A DNA stretch of 64,000 nt from an uncultured Eubacteriales bacterium. GTDB lineage: Bacteria; Bacillota; Clostridia; Christensenellales; CAG-138. Positions 5,897 through 38,530 of this stretch are shown piece after piece (the stretch's first letter is position 1; the number at the start of each line of letters is the position of its first letter). Where the stretch lies: contig UQWD01000003.1 in NCBI GenBank assembly GCA_900544555.1, positions 66,519 through 130,518 on the forward strand, read 5' to 3'. The position numbers were made by a program, and so were the translations under genes. The notes under the pieces were generated by a model, which saw only the letters and a program-made list of their open reading frames with translations, ran no database searches and was not told where the DNA came from.

Positions 5897-6332
5897 AAAC
5901 GCGAAGAGTTATCAGTATCGCGTTAACGAAAAAATGCCAAGAAGCAAAACCGGTATTCAATGCGTCAACGCGTTTTGGGTTGGCGGCCTGATATGCTGCA
6001 TTGGACAGCTGGTTAAGGATCTAGGCTCTGTGTGGTTTAACTTTGGCGAGGACGCCCTGTCCGCTTTTACCGCCATGGTCATGGTTTTCCTGGGCGCCAC
6101 ACTTACGGGAATAGGCGTTTATGACAAAATAGGTTCCTTTGCCGGGGCGGGCAGCATCGTTCCGATTACCGGCTTTGCCAACTCAATCGTGTCCCCCGCG
6201 ATGGAGTATAAATGCGAGGGATATGTTATGGGCGTGGGAGCGAAGCTTTTCAGTATAGCGGGACCCGTACTCGTTTACGGTGTAAGCGCCTCGGTGCTGG
6301 TGGGCTTATTAACACTGCTTTTCCCAAGATAG
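5880..6332 (+). CDS. spoVAC: Stage V sporulation protein AC
   Basis: NAFWVGGLICCIGQL...IVPITGFANSIVSPAMEY...GPVLVYG are SpoVAC hallmarks. GGAGG SD is present. Confidence 0.9.
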   Translation: MDGTNKNAKSYQYRVNEKMPRSKTGIQCVNAFWVGGLICCIGQLVKDLGSVWFNFGEDALSAFTAMVMVFLGATLTGIGVYDKIGSFAGAGSIVPITGFANSIVSPAMEYKCEGYVMGVGAKLFSIAGPVLVYGVSASVLVGLLTLLFPR

Positions 6333-6350
6333 GCTTTTGAGAGGTGAACT

Positions 6351-7397
6351 ATGAGCAAACATATTGGAAAACAGTCTATGGGGTTCAACACTAAGCCGCG
6401 CATCCGTTCGTCCGGCTCAATCGTGGGCGAAGTCGAGGGCAACGGCCCCATAGGGAAATACTTTGATACCATACTCCAAGACGATACCTGGGGTGAAAAG
6501 AGCTGGGAGCGCGCTGAGAGGAAGATGTTTGAACAGGCTGTGAGGCTGGCTGTAAATAAAGCCGGATTTACGCCTGAAGGGCTGGATTGTTTGCTTGGCG
6601 GCGATCTGCTCAACCAAATAATATCGGCGAACTTTGCGGCGCGGGAGCTTCGTACGCCGTATCTGGGCCTTTACGGCGCTTGTTCGACCATGGCGGAATC
6701 GCTTATGATTGGGAGCATGATGATCGACGGAGGCTATGCAAACAGGGTGGCCTGCGTCGCTGGGAGCCATTTTTCCACAGCGGAACGACAATACCGTTTG
6801 CCTTTAGAAATGGGCGGACAGAGCACGCCGACCTCACAGCGCACGGTTACGGGCGTAGGATGCCTGGTACTGACAGATGAAAATGATTTCGATATCTTTA
6901 CCGACCAGCGGGCGTTTGATAAGCGGATATGCGTTACATCCGCTACAATCGGGCGCGTCGTTGATTTTGGCATCACGGACGCGAATAATATGGGCGCCGC
7001 GATGGCCCCGGCCGCATTTGAGACGCTGGAAGCGCATTTTAGGGATATGGGAAGCACCCTAAAGGATTACGATCTCATCATAACCGGCGACCTCGGCGAT
7101 TTCGGAACTGAAATGCTTAAAGAGCTTTGCATGGATAAAGGGATAGATCTTGGTGATAAGCATGTAGACTGCGGCAATATTATTTTTGAAAAAAGCGCGA
7201 GCATTATGTGCGGCGCAAGCGGGTGCGGCTGCTCCGCTGTAACGCTGGGTTCCTATTTGTTAAAGAGGATGGAGGAGGGAGACTTTAAAAAAGCGCTATT
7301 TATGGCTACGGGCGCGTTGTTGAGCCCTTCGACAACCATGCAGGGGGACAGTATACCATCTATCGCGCACGCGGTTGTAATAGAAAGGCAGGATTGA
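6351..7397 (+). CDS. spoVAD: Stage V sporulation protein AD (thiolase-like)
   Basis: 348 aa with LYGACSTMAESL and CGASGCGCSA motifs. It sits between spoVAC and spoVAE. Confidence 0.9.
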   Translation: MSKHIGKQSMGFNTKPRIRSSGSIVGEVEGNGPIGKYFDTILQDDTWGEKSWERAERKMFEQAVRLAVNKAGFTPEGLDCLLGGDLLNQIISANFAARELRTPYLGLYGACSTMAESLMIGSMMIDGGYANRVACVAGSHFSTAERQYRLPLEMGGQSTPTSQRTVTGVGCLVLTDENDFDIFTDQRAFDKRICVTSATIGRVVDFGITDANNMGAAMAPAAFETLEAHFRDMGSTLKDYDLIITGDLGDFGTEMLKELCMDKGIDLGDKHVDCGNIIFEKSASIMCGASGCGCSAVTLGSYLLKRMEEGDFKKALFMATGALLSPSTTMQGDSIPSIAHAVVIERQD

Positions 7398-18418: not shown

Positions 18419-18465
18419 CGCTTGACATTATAAGGCGCGGCGCATAAACTGTTTTTATGTATATT

Positions 18466-18699
18466 GGCGAAGACGGAGAGGAGTACGCGCGTAATTATGC
18501 GTCAGAGAGGCCGCCCCACCGGCTGAAAGGGTTGCCGGCAAAAAGGCGCGGAACGTCGCTCCCGAGCTTTCCGGGCGATATGTAGTACGGAACGGGCGCA
18601 TACCGTTATCATGCTTGAGTGGAATGTATTTTTGATGCATTCAACAAAGGTGGTACCGCGAGCCGGCCCTCTCGTCCTTTGAATGAGAGGGCTTTTGTT
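18466..18699 (+). promoter_or_regulatory. T-box leader (valine-specific) of valS
   Basis: Conserved T-box sequence AAAGGTGGTACCGCG (18647-18660). The terminator GCCCTCTCGTCCTTTGAATGAGAGGGC is followed by TTTTGTT. An AGAGA/GTAC stem I element is present. The candidate specifier GTC (Val) lies at 18555-18557, in GAACGTCG. Confidence 0.85.
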
Positions 18700-18723
18700 A
18701 TATTTAGAGTTTGGAGGCTGAAT

Positions 18724-21366
18724 ATGGAAAGGGAAATGGAGAAGACGTATAACCATAGCGCGGTAGAAGGCAGGCTGTACGAATGTTGGGAAGAGAACGG
18801 CTGTTTTCATGCGGAGGCAAACCGCGAAAAAGATCCGTACTGCATAGTGATACCTCCGCCTAACATCACGGGAAGGCTGCATATGGGGCATGCGCTGGAT
18901 GAAACGCTTCAGGACGCGATAATCCGCTATAAGAGGATGAGCGGTTTTGAAACCCTTTGGCTGCCGGGAACGGATCACGCGTCAATAGCCACAGAGGTAA
19001 AAATCGTTGAGGAGATGGCGAAGGAGGGGCTGACGAAGCAGGAAGCCGGCCGCGGCGGTTTTCTTGAGCGCGCGTGGGAATGGAAGCGCGAGTATGGCGG
19101 GAGGATAGTGGAACAGTTAAAGAAGCTTGGCTGCTCCTGCGATTGGGAGCGGGAACGCTTCACGATGGACGAGGGCTGCAGCAGGGCTGTTACAAAGGCG
19201 TTTGTTGACCTTTATCATAAAGGGCTGATTTACAGGGGGAACCGTATAATCAACTGGTGCCCGGATTGTAAAACGGCGTTGAGCGACGCGGAGGTTGAAT
19301 ACGAAGAGCAAAGCAGCCACTTATGGCATGTACGCTACGACGCGCCGGATAAGAGCTTTTCAATCGTATGCGCGACGACGCGTCCCGAAACCATATTGGG
19401 CGATACGGGCGTGGCCGTAAACCCGAATGACGAAAGATACAAGGGGCTTATAGGAAAAAAGGTGATCGTGCCCGTTGTGGGCAGGGAGATCCCCATCGTG
19501 GCGGATTCCTATGTTGAGATGGATTTTGGAACGGGCGCGGTAAAAATAACGCCCGCCCATGACCCGAATGATTTTGAGGTTGGCGCGCGAGCAGGCTTGC
19601 CCTCCTTATGCGTATTCACCGGGGATGGACGTATCAACGAGCTGGGCGGGGAATTTGCGGGCATGGACAGGTTTGCGTGCCGCAAGGCGTTTGTTGAGGC
19701 GCTCGAGCAGGCGGGGGCGCTGGTGAAAGCGGAACCATACGCCCATAATGTGGGCGGGTGTTACCGCTGCGGGACTACGGTCGAACCGATGATATCCAAG
19801 CAGTGGTTTGTTGATATGAAGCCCCTGGCCAAACCGGCGCTTGAAGCCGTGCGCTCCGGTGAAATCCGGTTTGTGCCTCAGCGCTTCGAAAAAACCTACT
19901 TTAACTGGATGGAAAATATCCGGGACTGGTGCATATCACGGCAGCTATGGTGGGGGCATCGAATACCCGCATGGTACTGCGATGGGTGCGGGGAAACAAT
20001 CGTTGAGCAATCCGCTCCATCCTCATGCCCTAAATGCGGCGGAACGGTAAGCCAGGATGAGGATGTGCTCGATACCTGGTTCAGCTCGGGCATGTGGCCT
20101 TTTTCCACCCTGGGCTGGCCGGATGATACGGATGAGCTGGCCTATTTTTACCCGACCTCAACGCTGGTTACGGCTTATGACATCATTTTTTTCTGGGTTG
20201 CCCGCATGATCGTATTTGGTATAGAGGTAATGGGGCTTAAGCCGTTTGATACGGTATATATACACGGTATCGTACGGGATGATCAGGGGCGCAAAATGTC
20301 CAAATCCCTTGGCAACGGCATTGATCCTTTGGAAATTATACGGGATTATGGGGCGGATTCTTTGAGATTCAGCTTAATCACCGGCAACTCCGCCGGCAGC
20401 GACATGCGGTTTTACCCGAAAAAGGCAGAGGCCGCGCGCAATTTCTGCAACAAAATCTATAACGCGGCCCGCTTTGTTATCATGAACCTGGGCGAGGGGG
20501 TTTGCGGGAGCATAGACGCGAATCGAATGGATATCGCGGATAAATGGATCTTGCATCGGCTCGATTGCGTGATTCAGGACGTTACCGCTCATTTCAACGC
20601 TTATGATTTGAACTTAGCGGCTCAAAAGGCGTATGATTTTATTTGGAACGAATTCTGCGATTGGTATATTGAGATGGCAAAGCCGCGCCTTTACGGGCAA
20701 GATGAAGCGGACAAAGCGCATGTGCGGGCTGTTCTGGTGCGCGTGCTCGGCGATTCCATGAAGCTGCTCCACCCGTTCATGCCCTTTATTACGGAAGAGC
20801 TCTACTCATATTTGCCCAACGGCGAGGGCTTCCTCATGCTTTCCAAATGGCCTCGGGCTTCAGCGGATAATCAGTTTGTACGCGAGGCGGAGGCGATGGA
20901 GGGGGTAATGGATATTATCCGCGCAATACGGAATATGCGCGCCAAGATGAACGTGCCGCCCGCCAAAAAGGTTGAGCTGACGCTCGTGGCAAAGCCGGAG
21001 CGCGCCCAGGTCTGTATTATGGCTTCGGCCTACATAGCTAGGCTTGCGGGCGCGTCGCGAGTAAACGTACAGGAGGATAAACAAGGCGTGGAACCCAATG
21101 CGGTTTCCGTGGCAAGCGCGTTGGCAGAGGCGTATATCCCGCTTAACCAGCTCATTGATATTAAGAAGGAACGGGAGCGCATTGCGGGGGAAATGGATAA
21201 AACGCGCGGCGAGATAGCCCGTGCTGAAGGTAAGCTTAATAACGCCGGGTTTATCGCGAAAGCGCCCGAACGCGTAGTTGATGAGGAGCGGAAAAAGCTA
21301 TTCGCCCATCGGGAGATGCTCGATACGCTTTCAGAGCGCCTGAAGCAGTTAGAAGAGATTGAATAA
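18724..21366 (+). CDS. valS: Valine--tRNA ligase
   Basis: 880 aa with PPPNITGRLHMGH (HIGH) and KMSKS motifs and a C-terminal coiled coil. GGAGG precedes ATG 18724. The track start at 18619 lies inside the T-box. Confidence 0.95.
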   Translation: MEREMEKTYNHSAVEGRLYECWEENGCFHAEANREKDPYCIVIPPPNITGRLHMGHALDETLQDAIIRYKRMSGFETLWLPGTDHASIATEVKIVEEMAKEGLTKQEAGRGGFLERAWEWKREYGGRIVEQLKKLGCSCDWERERFTMDEGCSRAVTKAFVDLYHKGLIYRGNRIINWCPDCKTALSDAEVEYEEQSSHLWHVRYDAPDKSFSIVCATTRPETILGDTGVAVNPNDERYKGLIGKKVIVPVVGREIPIVADSYVEMDFGTGAVKITPAHDPNDFEVGARAGLPSLCVFTGDGRINELGGEFAGMDRFACRKAFVEALEQAGALVKAEPYAHNVGGCYRCGTTVEPMISKQWFVDMKPLAKPALEAVRSGEIRFVPQRFEKTYFNWMENIRDWCISRQLWWGHRIPAWYCDGCGETIVEQSAPSSCPKCGGTVSQDEDVLDTWFSSGMWPFSTLGWPDDTDELAYFYPTSTLVTAYDIIFFWVARMIVFGIEVMGLKPFDTVYIHGIVRDDQGRKMSKSLGNGIDPLEIIRDYGADSLRFSLITGNSAGSDMRFYPKKAEAARNFCNKIYNAARFVIMNLGEGVCGSIDANRMDIADKWILHRLDCVIQDVTAHFNAYDLNLAAQKAYDFIWNEFCDWYIEMAKPRLYGQDEADKAHVRAVLVRVLGDSMKLLHPFMPFITEELYSYLPNGEGFLMLSKWPRASADNQFVREAEAMEGVMDIIRAIRNMRAKMNVPPAKKVELTLVAKPERAQVCIMASAYIARLAGASRVNVQEDKQGVEPNAVSVASALAEAYIPLNQLIDIKKERERIAGEMDKTRGEIARAEGKLNNAGFIAKAPERVVDEERKKLFAHREMLDTLSERLKQLEEIE

Positions 21367-22744: not shown

Positions 22745-22821
22745 GCGCCTGTAGCTCAGCAGGATAGAGCAACGGCCTTCTAAGCCGTAGGTCCCGGGTT
22801 CGAATCCCTGCGGGCGCGCCA
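22745..22821 (+). tRNA. tRNA-Arg (TCT)
   Basis: GCGCCTGTAGCTCAG... with anticodon arm ACGGC-CTTCTAA-GCCGT and an encoded CCA. Confidence 0.9.
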
Positions 22822-22829
22822 ATTTTTGT

Positions 22830-22907
22830 GGTGGGTATAGTTCAGTTGGCTAGAACGCCAGATTGTGGCTCTGGAGGTCGTGGGTTCGAGACCCACTACT
22901 CACCCCA
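22830..22907 (+). tRNA. tRNA-His (GTG) with G-1
   Basis: Extra 5' G. Anticodon arm CCAGA-TTGTGGC-TCTGG, with the 3' end ...TACTCACCCCA. Confidence 0.9.
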
Positions 22908-22930
22908 TCTTTCAATAACGCCGGGGTTAT

Positions 22931-23005
22931 TGGGGTGTCGCCAAGCGGTAAGGCACGGGACTTTGACTCCCGCACTCGTAGGTTCAAATCCTGCCACCCC
23001 AGCCA
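22931..23005 (+). tRNA. tRNA-Gln (TTG)
   Basis: TGGGGTG acceptor. Anticodon arm CGGGA-CTTTGAC-TCCCG, with the 3' end CACCCCAGCCA. Confidence 0.9.
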
Positions 23006-23010
23006 TTTTT

Positions 23011-23086
23011 GACCCGTTAGCTCAGCCGGTAGAGCACTTGACTTTTAATCAAGGTGTCCGGAGTTCGAATCTCCGACGGGTCACCA
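23011..23086 (+). tRNA. tRNA-Lys (TTT)
   Basis: GACCCGTTAGCTCAG... with anticodon arm CTTGA-CTTTTAA-TCAAG. Confidence 0.9.
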
Positions 23087-23101
23087 TTTTTCTATCTGTA
23101 A

Positions 23102-23186
23102 GCGGGCGTGGCGGAATTGGCAGACGCGCCAGATTTAGGTTCTGGTGCCAAAAGGCGTATGAGTTCGAGTCTCTTCGCCCGCACCA
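23102..23186 (+). tRNA. tRNA-Leu (TAG)
   Basis: 85 nt with a long variable arm and anticodon arm CCAGA-TTTAGGT-TCTGG. Confidence 0.9.
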
Positions 23187-23201
23187 TTTACCTTTTTCCT
23201 T

Positions 23202-23277
23202 GCGGGAATAGCTCATTCGGTAGAGCGCCGCCTTGCCAAGGCGGAGGTGGCGGGTTCGAACCCCGTTTCCCGCTCCA
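23202..23277 (+). tRNA. tRNA-Gly (GCC)
   Basis: GCGGGAATAGCTCA... with anticodon arm CCGCC-TTGCCAA-GGCGG. Confidence 0.9.
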
Positions 23278-23283
23278 GAAAAC

Positions 23284-23357
23284 GCGGATGTAGTGTAATG
23301 GTAACACATTAGCCTTCCAAGCTGAGATAGTGGGTTCGAGTCCCATCATCCGCTCCA
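23284..23357 (+). tRNA. tRNA-Gly (TCC)
   Basis: GCGGATGTAGTGTAATGG... with anticodon loop CTTCCAA. Confidence 0.9.
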
Positions 23358-23366
23358 GCAAAATAT

Positions 23367-23442
23367 GGGCCGTTAGCTCAGTTGGTAGAGCACCTGACTC
23401 TTAATCAGGGTGTCCCGGGTTCGAGCCCCTGACGGCCCACCA
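23367..23442 (+). tRNA. tRNA-Lys (CTT)
   Basis: GGGCCGTTAGCTCAG... with anticodon arm CCTGA-CTCTTAA-TCAGG. Confidence 0.9.
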
Positions 23443-32696: not shown

Positions 32697-34538
32697 TCAG
32701 GCGATCGCCTCTTCAAACTGGGAGTTGTACAGCTGCGCATAGAACCCGTTCCGCTCAAGCAGCTCCTCATGGCTCCCCTGCTCGACAATATCCCCCTCCT
32801 TCATAACTAGGATTAAATCCGCGTCTTTTATAGTTGAGAGACGGTGCGCTATCACAAAGCTGGTGCGCCCCTTCATCAGGTTCGCCATCGCCTTTTGGAT
32901 GCGCGACTCCGTGCGCGTATCCACGGAGCTTGTCGCCTCGTCCAGTATCAATATCCGATTGTCCGCCAGTATCGCACGCGCTATGGTCAAAAGCTGCTTT
33001 TGGCCCTGCGAGATGTTTGTCGCGTCCTCGTTAAGCTCCATCTCATAGCCCCCGGGGAGCGTTTGAATGAAATGGTGTACATAGGCTGCTTTGGCTGCAG
33101 CGATAACCTCCTCGTCCGTGGCGTCGAGCCTGCCGTAGCGGATGTTCTCCATAATCGTGCCGTTGAAGAGCCATGTATCCTGAAGCACCATGCCGAACAC
33201 CTCCCTCAGCTCGCTGCGGTTGAAATCCCGTATGTCATGCCCGTCAACAAGTATGCTTCCGCCGTTCACGTCGTAAAAGCGCATGAGGAGCTTAACCATG
33301 GTGGTTTTGCCCGCGCCGGTCGGCCCGACGATAGCCACCATCTGTCCGGGATTGACCTTTGCGCTGAAATCGTTAATGATGATTTTATCCGGCCGGTAGC
33401 CAAAGCGCACATTTTCAAAATCGACCCGCCCCATTATGGATTGAGGGGACACGGGGTTATGCACGGTTGAATCCTCCTCTTTTTCGGAAAGGAACTCAAA
33501 TACGCGCTCGGAAGCGGCCGCCATAGACTGGAGCATGTTTGAAACCTGCGCTATTTGCGTGATGGGCTGCGTAAAGTTGCGCACATACTGGATAAACGCC
33601 TGGATGTCGCCGACGGTGATGGCCCCCTGTATAGCGAGGATACTGCCGGCTACGGCTACCGCGATGTACCCAAGGTTCCCCACAAACGCCATGATTGGCT
33701 GCATAAGGCCGGATAGAAACTGCGATTTCCAGGCGGAGCGATACAGTTCTTTATTGGCGCCGTCAAATTCCTCGATTACCTTCCCCTCGCGGTTAAACGC
33801 CTTTACTACGCGGTGGCCGCTGTACACCTCCTCAACCTGCCCGTTAATCTGACCAAGGTACGATTGCTGGGAAACAAAGTATTTTTGCGAACGCTTAACC
33901 ACAAGCATGATAAGCGACCCGGCGATGGGGAGGATGACCACCGCGATTAACGTCATAAGCGGGCTGATGGTCAGCATCATCACCAATACGCCCAGCATCA
34001 TGGTAACGGACGTGATAAGCTGGGTAACGCTTTGGTTCAGGCTTTGGCCAAGCGTATCCACGTCGTTTGTTATGCGGGAAAGGACCTCTCCGACCGTCCT
34101 CGATTCAAAATAATCCAGCGGAAGCCGGTTGATCTTCTCCGATATTTCACGCCGCATGCGATAGCATACCTTCTGCGTAATCGAGCTCATCATCCACCCT
34201 TGAATCAGGGAGAAACAGGAGCTGAGCACGTACAGGCCGAGTAAAGCGAGCAAGAGCGAGCCGATCTTATCAAATGGGATTCCGCCCGTTCCGCTGATCT
34301 TCGCCACAAGCCCGTTAAACAGCTCGGTAATTGCGGAGCTTAGGACTTTAGGGCCTACAATGCTAAAAACGGTACTCAAAACGGCGAACACGAGTACGAA
34401 GATCAACGCGCTTTTATGCCTGCCCATATAGGAAAGAAGGCTCCGTACAGTACCCTTGAAGTCGCGGGCCTTCTCGCCCGGCGCCATGCCGCCGCCCATA
34501 TGCCCGCGCGGGCCGGCGTGTTTTTGCGTTGCACTCAT
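32697..34538 (-). CDS. ABC exporter permease/ATPase fusion (heterodimer subunit)
   Basis: GPTGAGKTT, ISQGQKQ and ILILDEATS motifs. 4-nt overlap with the upstream ABC gene. Confidence 0.85.
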   Translation of the reverse strand: MSATQKHAGPRGHMGGGMAPGEKARDFKGTVRSLLSYMGRHKSALIFVLVFAVLSTVFSIVGPKVLSSAITELFNGLVAKISGTGGIPFDKIGSLLLALLGLYVLSSCFSLIQGWMMSSITQKVCYRMRREISEKINRLPLDYFESRTVGEVLSRITNDVDTLGQSLNQSVTQLITSVTMMLGVLVMMLTISPLMTLIAVVILPIAGSLIMLVVKRSQKYFVSQQSYLGQINGQVEEVYSGHRVVKAFNREGKVIEEFDGANKELYRSAWKSQFLSGLMQPIMAFVGNLGYIAVAVAGSILAIQGAITVGDIQAFIQYVRNFTQPITQIAQVSNMLQSMAAASERVFEFLSEKEEDSTVHNPVSPQSIMGRVDFENVRFGYRPDKIIINDFSAKVNPGQMVAIVGPTGAGKTTMVKLLMRFYDVNGGSILVDGHDIRDFNRSELREVFGMVLQDTWLFNGTIMENIRYGRLDATDEEVIAAAKAAYVHHFIQTLPGGYEMELNEDATNISQGQKQLLTIARAILADNRILILDEATSSVDTRTESRIQKAMANLMKGRTSFVIAHRLSTIKDADLILVMKEGDIVEQGSHEELLERNGFYAQLYNSQFEEAIA

Positions 34539-36688
34539 AGTTTAAGCCCTCCTTCCAGCTCGTTCGCTGACAGCTGCGACCCGGCGATTTCCCGGTAGGT
34601 CTGGCAGCTTTGCATCAGGGAAGCATGACAGCCGACGCCCGCTATCCTTCCCTCGTCCAGCACGACGATTTGCTCCGCGTGCAAAATCGTGCTTATCCTC
34701 TGCGCCACGATGATGACGGTTGCGCCGGCGGTCTTTGTTTTCAAAGCCCTTCTGAGCGCAACGTCGGTTTTATAGTCCAGCGCGGAAAAGCTGTCGTCAA
34801 ACAGGAATACCTTCGGGCCTTTCGCAACGGCCCGCGCGATGGACAGCCTCTGCTTCTGGCCGCCCGAAACATTTGAACCGCCCTGCGCGATGGGGCTTAA
34901 GTAGCCATCCGGCTTATCGTTGATGAAATCCTCCGCCTGAGCGATTTGGGCGGCCTCGCGCATCGCTTCATCCGAAATTCCATTGCCGCCAAATTTGAGA
35001 TTCGATTCAATATCGCCTGAGAACAACACGCCCTTTTGCGGAACGTAGCCGAGCAGGCTCCTGAGCTTTTTCTGGGAAATATCGCGTATATCCACGCCGT
35101 CCAGCGTTATTCTGCCCTCGGTTACATCAAAGAACCTGGGGATCAGATGGATGAGCGTTGATTTACCGGAACCGGTGCTCCCGATAATAGCGGTGGTTTG
35201 CCCAGGCTGCGCGGTAAAGCTTATGTGCTCGAGGACATTCTCCTCAGCGTCGGGATATCGGAAGGATACATCCTCAAATGCGACAACGCCGTTCCACTGA
35301 GCTATGCTATCATCCTTTACTTCGCGCGCGTCCCTTATGCTCGGTTCCGTGCCCGTAACCTCGTCTATCCGCGCGGCGGCTACGCCCGCCCTCGGCAGCA
35401 GGACCGAAATCATGGTAAGCATCAGAAAAGACATAACTATCTGCATCGTATAGGTAATAAAGGCCATCATATCGCCCACCTGAAGGTTACCAAGCTCAAT
35501 GCCGTGCGTACCCGACCAGACGATAAGTACCGTGATACCGTTCATCACCAGCATCATTGCCGGCATCATGAAGGACATTACGCGAGAGGTGAACAGCTGC
35601 GTTTTAGCGAGGTTTTCATTTGCGCCCGCAAACCTCTTTTCCTCGTGCTTTTCACGGCTAAAGGCGCGTATTACCGGAATTCCCGTAAGAATTTCCCTTG
35701 ATATCAGGTTCAACCGGTCGACGAGCTGCTGCATCTGCTTAAACTTCGGCATGGCAAGCTTAACCAATACCCCAACGAGCAGCATAATTACGCCGACCGC
35801 CACGCCGATTATCCATCCCATACCCGTGTTGGTGCCGGATACCATGATGATGCCGCCGGCGCCCAGAATCGGGGCGTATATCACCATGCGAAGCAGCATA
35901 ACGGTAACCATCTGCACCTGCTGGATGTCGTTCGTGCTCCTTGTGATAAGAGACGCGGTTGAGAACTTATCGATTTCCGCGCTTGAAAAGGAAACGACCT
36001 TTTTAAATAAGTTCGCCCTCAGCGACATACCGATTTTAGCGGCAGTTCGTGAAGCGAGCAGGCCGACGAGTATCGCCGAAAGCGCCATGAGTACGGTAAG
36101 CCCCATCATTTTAGCGCCGGTTGAAAGCAGATAATCGGTTTGAATACCGCCCAAGTCCAGGCCAAGCTGCTCATACTCTTCCTTAACAAAAAGCATCGCC
36201 TTTTGCGTAACCAGCGTGCCGCTCTCGCCGCCCAATTTCTCAACTACGCTATTACGCGCCTCAAGCAGCTGCGCCTTGGTAACGGCTCCCGCGTCAAGCA
36301 TGGCCTTTATTCCGTCAATCGTGATTTCGCCGCTGTTTTTTAAAGTTGATAGCATAACGATGGCGGGGCCAAGTATGCCGTCAAGATTATCAACCGCTTC
36401 ACCGCTCAATTCCTCAAGCTGATAATTCCCCGTATCATCCTTGATATATGAGCCGGATACGATTGAGGTTTCTTCATCGGTCATGAAAAGTTTAAGGTTT
36501 TCAAGCGTTGTTGCGCGTATCCGTTCGGGCGCTACATGCTCGATTCCGCCCTGTTGTATGCCGATATCCACAATATCGGACGTATATTTGGGCAGGGACA
36601 GGTCGCAAAACGCCTGTACGATTAACAAAAGTATGATTACGGTCACCTCAACCGCGTACCCTTTAAAATAACGAAATATTCTCAGCAT
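34535..36688 (-). CDS. ABC exporter permease/ATPase fusion with enlarged first extracytoplasmic loop
   Basis: GSTGSGKST, VSGGQKQR and VFLFDDS motifs. About 140 aa lie between TM1 (VTVIILLLIVQAF) and TM2 (MMGLTVLMALSAILVGLL). ATG 36688 overlaps the end of the marR gene. Confidence 0.8.
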   Translation of the reverse strand: MLRIFRYFKGYAVEVTVIILLLIVQAFCDLSLPKYTSDIVDIGIQQGGIEHVAPERIRATTLENLKLFMTDEETSIVSGSYIKDDTGNYQLEELSGEAVDNLDGILGPAIVMLSTLKNSGEITIDGIKAMLDAGAVTKAQLLEARNSVVEKLGGESGTLVTQKAMLFVKEEYEQLGLDLGGIQTDYLLSTGAKMMGLTVLMALSAILVGLLASRTAAKIGMSLRANLFKKVVSFSSAEIDKFSTASLITRSTNDIQQVQMVTVMLLRMVIYAPILGAGGIIMVSGTNTGMGWIIGVAVGVIMLLVGVLVKLAMPKFKQMQQLVDRLNLISREILTGIPVIRAFSREKHEEKRFAGANENLAKTQLFTSRVMSFMMPAMMLVMNGITVLIVWSGTHGIELGNLQVGDMMAFITYTMQIVMSFLMLTMISVLLPRAGVAAARIDEVTGTEPSIRDAREVKDDSIAQWNGVVAFEDVSFRYPDAEENVLEHISFTAQPGQTTAIIGSTGSGKSTLIHLIPRFFDVTEGRITLDGVDIRDISQKKLRSLLGYVPQKGVLFSGDIESNLKFGGNGISDEAMREAAQIAQAEDFINDKPDGYLSPIAQGGSNVSGGQKQRLSIARAVAKGPKVFLFDDSFSALDYKTDVALRRALKTKTAGATVIIVAQRISTILHAEQIVVLDEGRIAGVGCHASLMQSCQTYREIAGSQLSANELEGGLKL

Positions 36689-37146
36689 TTCATTGCTCCC
36701 GCCATTATTTTTATCTGTGTTTCCATAATATCGGTCAGCGCGTTCCACAGCGCGACAAAGGCTTTCATTTTTTCACTGCCCATCTGCGTAATAACGCCCT
36801 CAAGAAAGGTTTCTATAACTTGTTCCTGTTCCTTTCGGGTTATATCGCCTTTTTCAGTAAGCGAAATGAGCGTATTGCGGCGATCCAAAGCGTAATCGCC
36901 GCGCACAATCAATCCCCGCGTATGCATCGCGCGCAGCATGCGCGATACCGCCGGGGGAGAAACGCCAAGCCTATCCGCGATTGCGGATACGTTCATACCC
37001 TCGCGATATTCCCGCATGTGCCCATACAGTAGCTCTAGCAGGAAAAATTCGCTTTTTGATACCCGATTGAACAGAACAGGCATGTTCAGCCGTCCAAAGC
37101 GGTTCATCGCCAGCATATATTGTTCCAGCAATTCAGTATGTTGCAT
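36682..37146 (-). CDS. MarR-family transcriptional regulator
   Basis: Winged HTH: NVSAIADRLGVSPPAVSRMLRAMHTRGLIVR...DRRNTLISLTEKG. Confidence 0.85.
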   Translation of the reverse strand: MQHTELLEQYMLAMNRFGRLNMPVLFNRVSKSEFFLLELLYGHMREYREGMNVSAIADRLGVSPPAVSRMLRAMHTRGLIVRGDYALDRRNTLISLTEKGDITRKEQEQVIETFLEGVITQMGSEKMKAFVALWNALTDIMETQIKIMAGAMKC

Positions 37147-37398
37147 CCGTTACATTCCTCCGAACTATTCATTAACATAGTTATCGATTAACGAATGTCC
37201 TTTATGCTAGCACGCTTGCCGGACATTGTCAATTAATCATCGCAGAGTTTAAAGCGATGCCGTAGCACTGAAATGTACATTATTATAACAACATAATAAC
37301 ATAGATATATTGCACAGCCTCATGTATAATTATTGAGTTACATTTAATATGTCGTTTATTAGCAAAAGGAAAGGACAATTCAGATTTGGAGGCTAAAA

Positions 37399-37740
37399 AT
37401 GGAGAATTATGTGGAAACCGTCCTCATGAATATTGAATTTAAACCGTGCAGAAAAGGTTACGGCCAATTCGTCTGCGCCATTATGCTCATCATTCAATAT
37501 CCGCATTTGCGCAAGGTAACGGCTGAAATCTATCCTATGGTAGCGAAAATGATGAACATTACCGCGTGCAGTGTCGAGCGTAATATACGAGACTTAATCA
37601 ACGACGTTTGGAAGCACGGCGACGCGAAAATGTTTAAACAGATTTTCGGTAACTATGACGAGAATTACCCGCCGTACGGCAAAGATTTTCTTTTTACCAT
37701 TGCCAGAAGGCTGGAAATTGAATGGCGGGGTAAAAATTGA
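37399..37740 (+). CDS. Stand-alone Spo0A C-terminal (DNA-binding) domain protein lacking a receiver domain
   Basis: KGYGQFVCAI..IYPMVAKMMNITACSVERNIRDLINDVWKHGD..FGNY...GKDFLFTIARRLE aligns by eye with B. subtilis Spo0A [64 protein letters not shown] SD. Confidence 0.8.
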   Translation: MENYVETVLMNIEFKPCRKGYGQFVCAIMLIIQYPHLRKVTAEIYPMVAKMMNITACSVERNIRDLINDVWKHGDAKMFKQIFGNYDENYPPYGKDFLFTIARRLEIEWRGKN

Positions 37741-38020: not shown

Positions 38021-38049
38021 TTGACAAGCCTGCGCCGTGATGCTAAAAT
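38021..38049 (+). promoter_or_regulatory. Sigma-A-type promoter of tRNA-Pro
   Basis: TTGACA (38021-38026), 17-nt spacer, TAAAAT (38044-38049). Confidence 0.6.
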
Positions 38050-38067: not shown

Positions 38068-38144
38068 CTGGGTGTGGCGCAGTTTGGTAGCGTGCTTGAA
38101 TGGGGTTCAAGAGGCCGGAAGTTCGAATCTTCTCACCCAGACCA
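38068..38144 (+). tRNA. tRNA-Pro (GGG)
   Basis: Acceptor CTGGGTG/CACCCAG, anticodon arm CTTGA-ATGGGGT-TCAAG, T-arm GGAAGTTCGAATCTTCT, and an encoded CCA. Confidence 0.85.
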
Positions 38145-38148
38145 GGGA

Positions 38149-38185
38149 AAGCCCTGAAACTCTAGGTTTCAGGGCTTTTTATTTT
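38149..38185 (+). terminator. Terminator after tRNA-Pro
   Basis: AAGCCCTGAAAC / GTTTCAGGGCTT stem followed by a T-run. Confidence 0.75.
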
Positions 38186-38480
38186 CTTCATTTGTATAGT
38201 GCGAAAATGTACGATAAAGCGTTACTAATAACGGTTTTTGTTGATTTTCGGAAAAACTTCATTTAAAAAAAGTATAGGTAAATGCGAAGGTTTTTGCTCA
38301 AAAAATTGGATGATCGTTATTTAAAACTATTATAAAGAACTATTGGCCTTTTATGTGTTTGAATTGTTTCAAAGCGTCAAAAGAGTTATGCTTATACGTT
38401 TTGAATTGTTTTAAAAGTGTAATATATCGGCAACAAACCGACAACAATAATGCCGAAACGGAATACAGGAGGTTTATTCA

Positions 38481-38530
38481 TGGTGTTCAATAGGCCGGAA
38501 GTTCGAATTTACTCATCCAAACCAGGGAAA
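38481..38530 (+). repeat. Degenerate direct duplicate of the 3' half of tRNA-Pro (att-like scar)
   Basis: The 50 nt at 38481-38530 align with 38101-38150 with 6 mismatches by eye. The match includes GGCCGGAAGTTCGAAT and ACCAGGGAAA. Confidence 0.7.

Follow-up and report, generated by a model that had tools for sequence, protein, structure and literature searches.

A receiver-less Spo0A effector-domain gene at a fixed chromosomal locus of one human-gut clostridial species, and its proposed role as an expression-controlled DNA-binding regulator

The 64,000-nucleotide stretch of DNA analysed here, hereafter the window (contig UQWD01000003.1 of assembly GCA_900544555.1, positions 66,519 to 130,518 of the forward strand, from an uncultured Eubacteriales bacterium of the CAG-138 lineage), carries a gene for a 113-residue protein which matches the DNA-binding effector domain of Spo0A and lacks the receiver domain. 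With moderate confidence, this gene is regarded as encoding a functional and chromosomally fixed, receiver-less Spo0A effector paralogue of one spore-forming clostridial species of the human gut; the protein would act as a DNA binder controlled at the level of expression and would likely recognise a site resembling the 0A box. Its most likely function would be that of a transcription regulator controlled by its own expression. The gene and the signals that surround it are the following:

37399 to 37740, forward strand: coding sequence of the receiver-less Spo0A_C (PF08769) protein, 113 amino acids, ATG start (list of open reading frames, Pfam, AlphaFold2, Foldseek)
37388 to 37392, forward strand: Shine-Dalgarno sequence GGAGG, with the ATG 6 nucleotides further on (read from the sequence)
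37516 to 37617, forward strand: helix-turn-helix, composed of helix 40-52 (IYPMVAKMM region) and recognition helix 56-73 (ACSVERNIRDLINDVWKH) (DSSP on the AlphaFold2 model)
37302 to 37330, forward strand: candidate sigma-70-like promoter TAGATA-17-TATAAT, about 70 nucleotides 5' of the ATG (consensus scan, 10/12; pattern match only)
37273 to 37306: imperfect 14-nucleotide inverted repeat overlapping the -35 element of the candidate promoter (pattern match only)

The assignment to the Spo0A effector family arises from both sequence and structure comparisons. Spo0A_C is the sole Pfam family found in the protein, with an expectation value (E) of 3.6e-22 and a score of 78.8 bits against a gathering score of 25 bits, and residues 5-105 cover positions 1-104 of the 104 positions of the profile. 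By contrast, the NCBIfam equivalog model of the full protein (TIGR02875, spore_0_A) gives 48.8 bits, below its cutoff of 200 bits, and is matched at model positions 149-258 only. In a HMMER search of the Protein Data Bank (PDB) sequences, significant matches are limited to 1fc3 and 1lq1, which are crystallised effector domains of Spo0A (E about 1e-7). The AlphaFold2 model, built from an alignment of 40 sequences, has a mean predicted local distance difference test score of 95.6 and is composed of six helices (residues 2-11, 21-33, 40-52, 56-73, 76-83, and 94-112). When this model was compared to the PDB with Foldseek, the top seven matches were all Spo0A effector chains, with template modelling (TM) scores of 0.75-0.85, while the next match had an E of 0.35; the best one, 1lq1_C, superposes with a TM score of 0.85 and a root-mean-square deviation of 1.5 Å over 108 columns, at 28% identity. 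Since the identity to the crystallised Bacillus and Geobacillus effector domains is only 26-28%, the protein is to be seen as an old paralogue.

The absence of a receiver domain is supported by several observations. No Response_reg match, and thus no receiver (REC) domain with its phospho-acceptor aspartate, was detected by Pfam in the 113-residue protein, and a phmmer search with the full-length B. subtilis Spo0A against all six-frame open reading frames of the window returned only this C-terminal domain, with neither a REC-like open reading frame nor a receiver remnant. Besides, the AT-rich intergenic gap which separates the gene from the divergent MarR gene measures only 252 bp, too little to accommodate a receiver. 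These data support the view that the gene encodes a stand-alone Spo0A_C protein and is not what is left of a truncated spo0A. A truncated or pseudogenised spo0A was accordingly considered and set aside: the domain is complete, the upstream region has neither room for nor remnant of a receiver, and the reading frame is intact in all copies.

The likeness to Spo0A extends to the recognition helix. In the HMMER alignment to 1lq1 and 1fc3, whose numbering was checked, V59-E60-R61-N62-I63-R64 aligns with V212 to R217 of Spo0A, i.e., with the V-E-R-x-I-R motif, and E60, R61, and R64 are the equivalents of E213, R214, and R217, all three being retained. In the 1LQ1 structure, these three Spo0A residues are reported to contact bases. 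The equivalents of W224, G227, F236, and A257 are retained as well, while those of S210, R211, A215, H218, S231, S233, and V240 are changed. In an alignment of 40 members of the family, Y45, R64, and P92 never vary, while conservation reaches at least 90% for G20, P46, E60, W71, and F97. The retention of the E213, R214, and R217 equivalents makes it plausible that the protein could bind a 0A-like box without being phosphorylated.

An earlier sequence-only reading of this DNA had described a 113-residue open reading frame preceded by a GGAGG, aligned along its whole length with the Spo0A effector domain, including the recognition helix (TACSVERNIR...), and devoid of both a receiver and an adjacent kinase. 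The profile and structure searches bear out this description in all its parts: the Pfam match runs over the full profile, the recognition-helix alignment is reproduced by HMMER, and no histidine kinase was found near the gene in a Pfam scan of its neighbours. The neighbourhood that it had described, namely divergence from an operon of a MarR regulator and ABC exporters next to a proline transfer RNA (tRNA-Pro) gene with a duplicated 3' half, is likewise recovered:

36682 to 37146, reverse strand: divergent MarR-family regulator, first gene of an operon of MarR and two ABC exporter genes (32697-37146) (Pfam MarR, ABC_membrane, ABC_tran)
38068 to 38144, forward strand: tRNA-Pro(ggg) (ARAGORN, Rfam), with its own strong promoter at 38021-38049 and a terminator at 38146-38180 (pattern scan)
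38480 to 38530, forward strand: degenerate second copy of the tRNA-Pro 3' half, 51 nucleotides, 88% identical to 38100-38150

A MerR/GyrI-like gene is also found by Pfam among the neighbours, and Rfam detects nothing in the 330 bp between the Spo0A_C gene and tRNA-Pro. The gene does not lie in the recN-spoIVB-spo0A neighbourhood typical of canonical spo0A, its neighbours being MarR/ABC, tRNA-Pro, and MerR.

This locus is fixed in one species. The exact protein, or a variant from its 90% identity cluster, is encoded on about 87 contigs, which come from metagenomes of the human gut and from NCBI genomes, and the open reading frame is intact in all of them. Five sequence variants occur within the cluster, 98-100% identical where compared, and the variants compared differ by two non-synonymous and one synonymous changes. 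In the cluster contigs inspected, the gene always lies between the MarR gene and tRNA-Pro. Since about 20 kb of flanking DNA from one of these contigs is 99.3% identical to the window, these contigs are to be considered as strains of one species. When the adjacent MerR protein was looked up, 24 contigs were read, and 23 of them have the Spo0A_C gene upstream, in the position that it occupies in the window. In the exception, which we call L037, homology to the window starts at 38139, that is, at the 3' end of the tRNA; before that point, the contig encodes three large serine recombinases together with an IS256-type transposase. One of these recombinases gives a match to phrog_95, a family of phage integrases (E 2e-133), and no intact tRNA-Pro was found within the 10.8-kb stretch examined.

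In terms of mechanism, a protein with no receiver to hold it inactive could bind DNA as soon as it is made, and its activity would then be set by the transcription of its gene instead of the phosphorelay. This would be consistent with the literature, in which isolated Spo0A DNA-binding domains bind genuine targets in the unphosphorylated state, the G and C bases of TGTCGAA being of importance (PMC3485338). The most likely target of the window protein would be a 0A-box-like site with the core GTCGAA or a variant of it, and the protein might overlap or compete with phosphorylated Spo0A at some promoters. As the patch which contacts sigma-A is kept only in part (G227, F236, and A257 are retained, S231, S233, and V240 are not), activation would be no more likely than repression or competition by occupancy. 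The protein should have a full Spo0A beside it in the cell, since the window contains sporulation genes (spoVAD at 6351-7397, Coat_F at 44904-45182, and a Germane/GerM-like gene at 56757-57737) and a canonical spo0A is present in every known spore-former (bioRxiv 10.1101/2022.02.25.481979).

Several observations nevertheless weigh against this proposal. First, the search of the window for Spo0A returned the Spo0A_C gene only, and no canonical spo0A was located for this genome. Second, the residues beside the contact positions are altered (S210 to C, R211 to S, A215 to N, and H218 to D), so that the specificity may have shifted. Third, perfect 0A boxes (TGTCGAA) are not enriched in the window, where 5 are found for 6.2 expected, and none lies near the gene. 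Fourth, the ratio of non-synonymous to synonymous substitution rates is uninformative on purifying selection, because the available copies are 99-100% identical and their flanks (99.3%) nearly so. Fifth, the closest relatives outside the cluster (42-45% identical) sit in unrelated contexts, and the genomic context therefore gives no functional lead. Finally, the literature search returned no binding site, regulon, phenotype, or experiment for any natural receiver-less Spo0A_C protein.

A possible though less probable explanation is that the protein is an ordinary small helix-turn-helix regulator of Spo0A ancestry, whose specificity has diverged and whose regulon is local or unrelated (e.g., nearby stress or efflux genes), with no cross-talk with Spo0A or sporulation. 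The low identity to the crystallised effector domains and the changes at several positions of the recognition helix would both fit such a divergence, as would the position of the gene, divergent from the MarR-ABC operon and with the imperfect inverted repeat over its candidate promoter. 'Spo0A homolog' proteins have, in addition, been detected in the proteome of Faecalibacterium duncaniae, which does not sporulate (PMC13020158). On the other hand, the host of the window is of the spore-former type, and the MarR/ABC synteny is not common to the closest relatives. The three residues aligned with the positions reported to contact bases in Spo0A are, moreover, both kept in the protein and conserved in the family.

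The size and diversity of the class also speak for this explanation. An exhaustive HMMER search of 1.84 billion cluster representatives recovered 1454 proteins at E <= 1e-3, and among the best 150 of them, 90 are single-domain proteins of less than 200 residues, 33 have the size of a response regulator, and 27 contain two to five Spo0A_C domains in tandem. The closest single-domain relatives outside its own cluster, P0003, P0005, and P0009, are respectively 45%, 42%, and 37% identical to the window protein and share its GRKGY and SVERNIR motifs. The window protein is a divergent member of the class. P0003 and P0005 are both chromosomal and found in unrelated places, the former divergent from the spoIIIA operon and the latter beside feoB; their loci display neither a common synteny nor a firm tie to mobile elements. 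In the four P0003 contigs (L006-L009), the gene is transcribed divergently from spoIIIAA-AH, and none of the four contigs continues beyond about 1.3-1.5 kb downstream, the last gene being a small one that matches DUF2730 and phrog_1863 weakly. A repeated or variable region, possibly of phage-like nature, may begin where these contigs break off. For P0003 itself, called as a 195-residue product, Met67 is the probable start.

Scanning 185,579 GTDB species representatives by means of the subfamily motifs yielded relatives of 24-38% identity, about half of them fused to REC and half stand-alone. The patterns do match the window protein, and NCBI genomes carry this protein, yet no copy above 38% identity was found in the set; either the representative of the species does not have the locus or has it unassembled, or the species is unrepresented. 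The ten stand-alone GTDB homologues have 84 neighbours, all of the housekeeping type, and the top 25 Pfam families found there include neither a phage nor an integrase family. The tandem Spo0A_C proteins among the cluster representatives, which are devoid of a receiver, include P0002 (439 residues, 4 copies), P0004 (454 residues, 4 copies), and P0013 (849 residues, 5 stretches). Such an array of helix-turn-helix domains would suit tandem 0A boxes, and no description of this architecture was found in the literature searched.

A narrower version of the preferred reading, which goes one step beyond an expression-controlled DNA binder and which we consider rather doubtful, is that the protein has been domesticated as a phosphorylation-independent partner or antagonist of Spo0A: a signal-responsive promoter would drive its production, and its occupancy of 0A-like boxes would tune the frequency or timing of sporulation, or other traits under Spo0A control. 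Should this be true, the decision to sporulate would receive a second input, gated by transcription and independent of the kinase network, and the same logic might explain the large and uncharacterised pool of single-domain and tandem-repeat Spo0A_C proteins.

The sequence-only reading had proposed a phosphorylation-independent mimic or competitor of Spo0A and had also suggested, from the neighbouring tRNA-Pro and its duplicated 3' half, a horizontal origin and possibly a manipulation of host development encoded by a mobile element. According to this explanation, the gene would be cargo of a phage, of an integrative and conjugative element, or of another integrative element which entered at tRNA-Pro, and would serve this element by manipulating the sporulation of the host. 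For the gene under study, we consider this quite unlikely, although the class as a whole does have links with phages and mobile elements. PF08769 is indeed enriched in mobile elements of gut Firmicutes, as reported by Jiang et al. (PMC6907783), and Schwartz et al. (mBio 2023, PMC10294663) described spo0A homologues of gut phages which are truncated to the effector domain and were proposed to act on sporulation without the host signal. The idea of a phosphorylation-independent mimic is thus not new, being published for these phage-carried homologues. In PHROGs, two families hold such proteins, both annotated as of 'unknown function', and the window protein matches phrog_24603 (E 2e-9, positions 1-106 of 111) as well as phrog_37855 (E 1.5e-10).

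The survey of viral sequences that had been suggested together with this idea gave a divided answer. Receiver-less relatives do occur on phage contigs: a search of IMG/VR with a more canonical-like alignment of stand-alone proteins recovered 365 relatives, and among the best 80 loci, 60 have open reading frames of less than 200 residues without a receiver, including a large group of 128-residue proteins on contigs of 45-61 kb. However, close relatives of the window protein were not among them, since the subfamily motifs (SVERN[IF]R; M.x[YF][IV]ET) returned no relatives from IMG/VR and since the best phage-contig open reading frame recovered is 36% identical to it, compared to 42-45% for the chromosomal relatives. 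The 128-residue receiver-less protein, whose recognition helix (SKVERNIRNLIEVTW) is close to the canonical one, is carried by L099 (IMGVR_UViG_3300045988_050727) and about 30 similar gut viral contigs. The neighbours were inspected in L099, where the gene (6007-6393) lies directly 3' of an Ant anti-repressor gene and 5' of SSB and SbcC-like recombination genes, i.e., in an early regulatory region, with a divergent CI/Cro-like regulator and tail-fibre genes nearby.

The GenBank/INPHARED phage collection was searched with tblastn as well and gave 11 matches, which were rejected as a sign of phage carriage. The matches opened (H1, H4, H5, and H11) are all labelled 'UNVERIFIED', as 'UNVERIFIED: Bacteriophage sp. 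clone scaffold_N' from human faeces in Mexico (L038-L041), and these records are at least partly bacterial chromosome. H5 (L038, MT835504.1) carries tlyA-nadK-argR-recN-spoIVB-spo0A with a full protein made of REC and Spo0A_C, and is therefore a bacterial spo0A locus, while the Spo0A-like host open reading frames of H1, H4, and H11 are 255-274 residues long. Because such records are partly bacterial, their matches should not count as phage carriage.

At the locus itself, the geometry of the repeats argues against cargo. The direct repeat of the tRNA-Pro 3' half (38100-38150 and 38480-38530) leaves the Spo0A_C gene on the 5' side of the intact tRNA, while the partial copy lies on its 3' side, and no third tRNA-Pro fragment was found upstream of the gene. 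Any element that integrated here must have occupied the interval from 38145 to 38530, which does not include the Spo0A_C gene. The half-tRNA copy, 380 bp downstream, is an att-like scar of an element formerly located 3' of the tRNA. Together with the insertion observed in L037, this scar designates the 3' end of tRNA-Pro as a recurrent insertion site, which explains the half-tRNA copy; such a hot spot so close to the gene is a point in favour of mobile cargo. The flanks, in turn, show no integrase, phage, or conjugation gene among the open reading frames scanned over at least about 10 kb on either side. As for composition, the low GC content of the gene (42.7%, z = -1.9 compared to 48 window genes) could hint at an import, but its GC content at third codon positions (GC3) of 53.5% is close to the window mean of 57.9% (z = -0.7); GC3 being host-like, the low GC reflects the amino-acid composition and not a recent import. 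Given, in addition, that the gene occupies the same locus in all but one of the contigs read and that the stand-alone GTDB homologues have housekeeping neighbours, cargo of an element integrated at tRNA-Pro was discarded on geometry and flanking gene content, and the gene is not mobile-element cargo here.

Finally, that the gene would be a decaying remnant, either a pseudogene or a truncated copy of spo0A, is highly improbable: it is short, orphan, and endowed with few close relatives (a word-index search returned one 90% cluster, and only two representatives fall below E 1e-30), but its domain is covered from end to end, its model is very confident, its Shine-Dalgarno sequence and start codon are good, and no frame disruption occurs in the contigs which carry it, nor any trace of or room for a receiver upstream.

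More generally, the window has a GC content of 49.9% and looks like any core chromosomal region of a clostridial organism of the spore-former type; a few of its open reading frames gave no Pfam match. Besides the sporulation genes mentioned above, of which spoVAD is flanked by small open reading frames that are probably spoVAC and spoVAE, it contains housekeeping genes for valyl-tRNA synthetase, groEL, rubrerythrin, fur, recX, birA, and a Clp ATPase. One further gene is of the DUF421 (YetF-type) family, and another encodes an Amidase_3 domain. A T-box leader (18461-18682) lies upstream of the valyl-tRNA synthetase gene (18619-21366), and a compact cluster of nine tRNA genes occupies 22745-23442 (Arg, His, Gln, Lys, Leu, Gly, Gly, and Lys being named). 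A block of 2.7 kb (39841-42563), present in the window and in L034, L036, and L037 and absent from L001, L033, and L035, is a strain-variable insertion or deletion; it encodes a DUF2975 membrane protein, a small HTH_26 (Cro/C1-type) regulator, and a 324-residue protein without any Pfam match.

Gut Clostridia and the phages that infect them encode many receiver-less Spo0A_C proteins, and if these proteins bind 0A-type boxes, they would constitute a kinase-independent input to the sporulation decision, which governs the persistence and transmission of gut spore-formers. As both the architecture and the hypothesis are already present in Pfam, PHROGs, and the mBio 2023 paper, the copy described here opens no new question by itself. 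Its use is mainly that of an unambiguous chromosomal case, fixed within a single species and not borne by a phage, which shows that proteins of this class serve as more than weapons of phages.

Compared to known systems, the window protein shares with the Spo0A effector domain of Bacillus and Geobacillus (1FC3, 1LQ1) the same six-helix fold with an embedded helix-turn-helix and a full-length PF08769 match, whereas it counts 113 residues instead of about 267, lacks the receiver and the linker, and is encoded outside the spoIVB-spo0A context of the canonical gene, of which L038 is an example. With the receiver-less spo0A homologues of phages (PMC10294663), it has in common the effector-only architecture of about 110-190 residues, but the window copy is chromosomal, at one fixed locus, without flanking phage genes, and at most 36% identical to the phage-contig open reading frames recovered. 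In the engineered constitutive forms of B. subtilis Spo0A (isolated domain; sad67-type), removal of the receiver relieves inhibition (PMC3485338, PMC10294663). These forms are laboratory truncations with 100% identical recognition and sigma-contact surfaces, while the window protein is a natural and long-diverged paralogue. As an analogy, GerE, whose helix-turn-helix family is unrelated to Spo0A_C and for which no sequence or fold relationship is claimed, is a stand-alone effector domain of the LuxR/FixJ type that works as a sporulation transcription factor controlled by the time of its expression.

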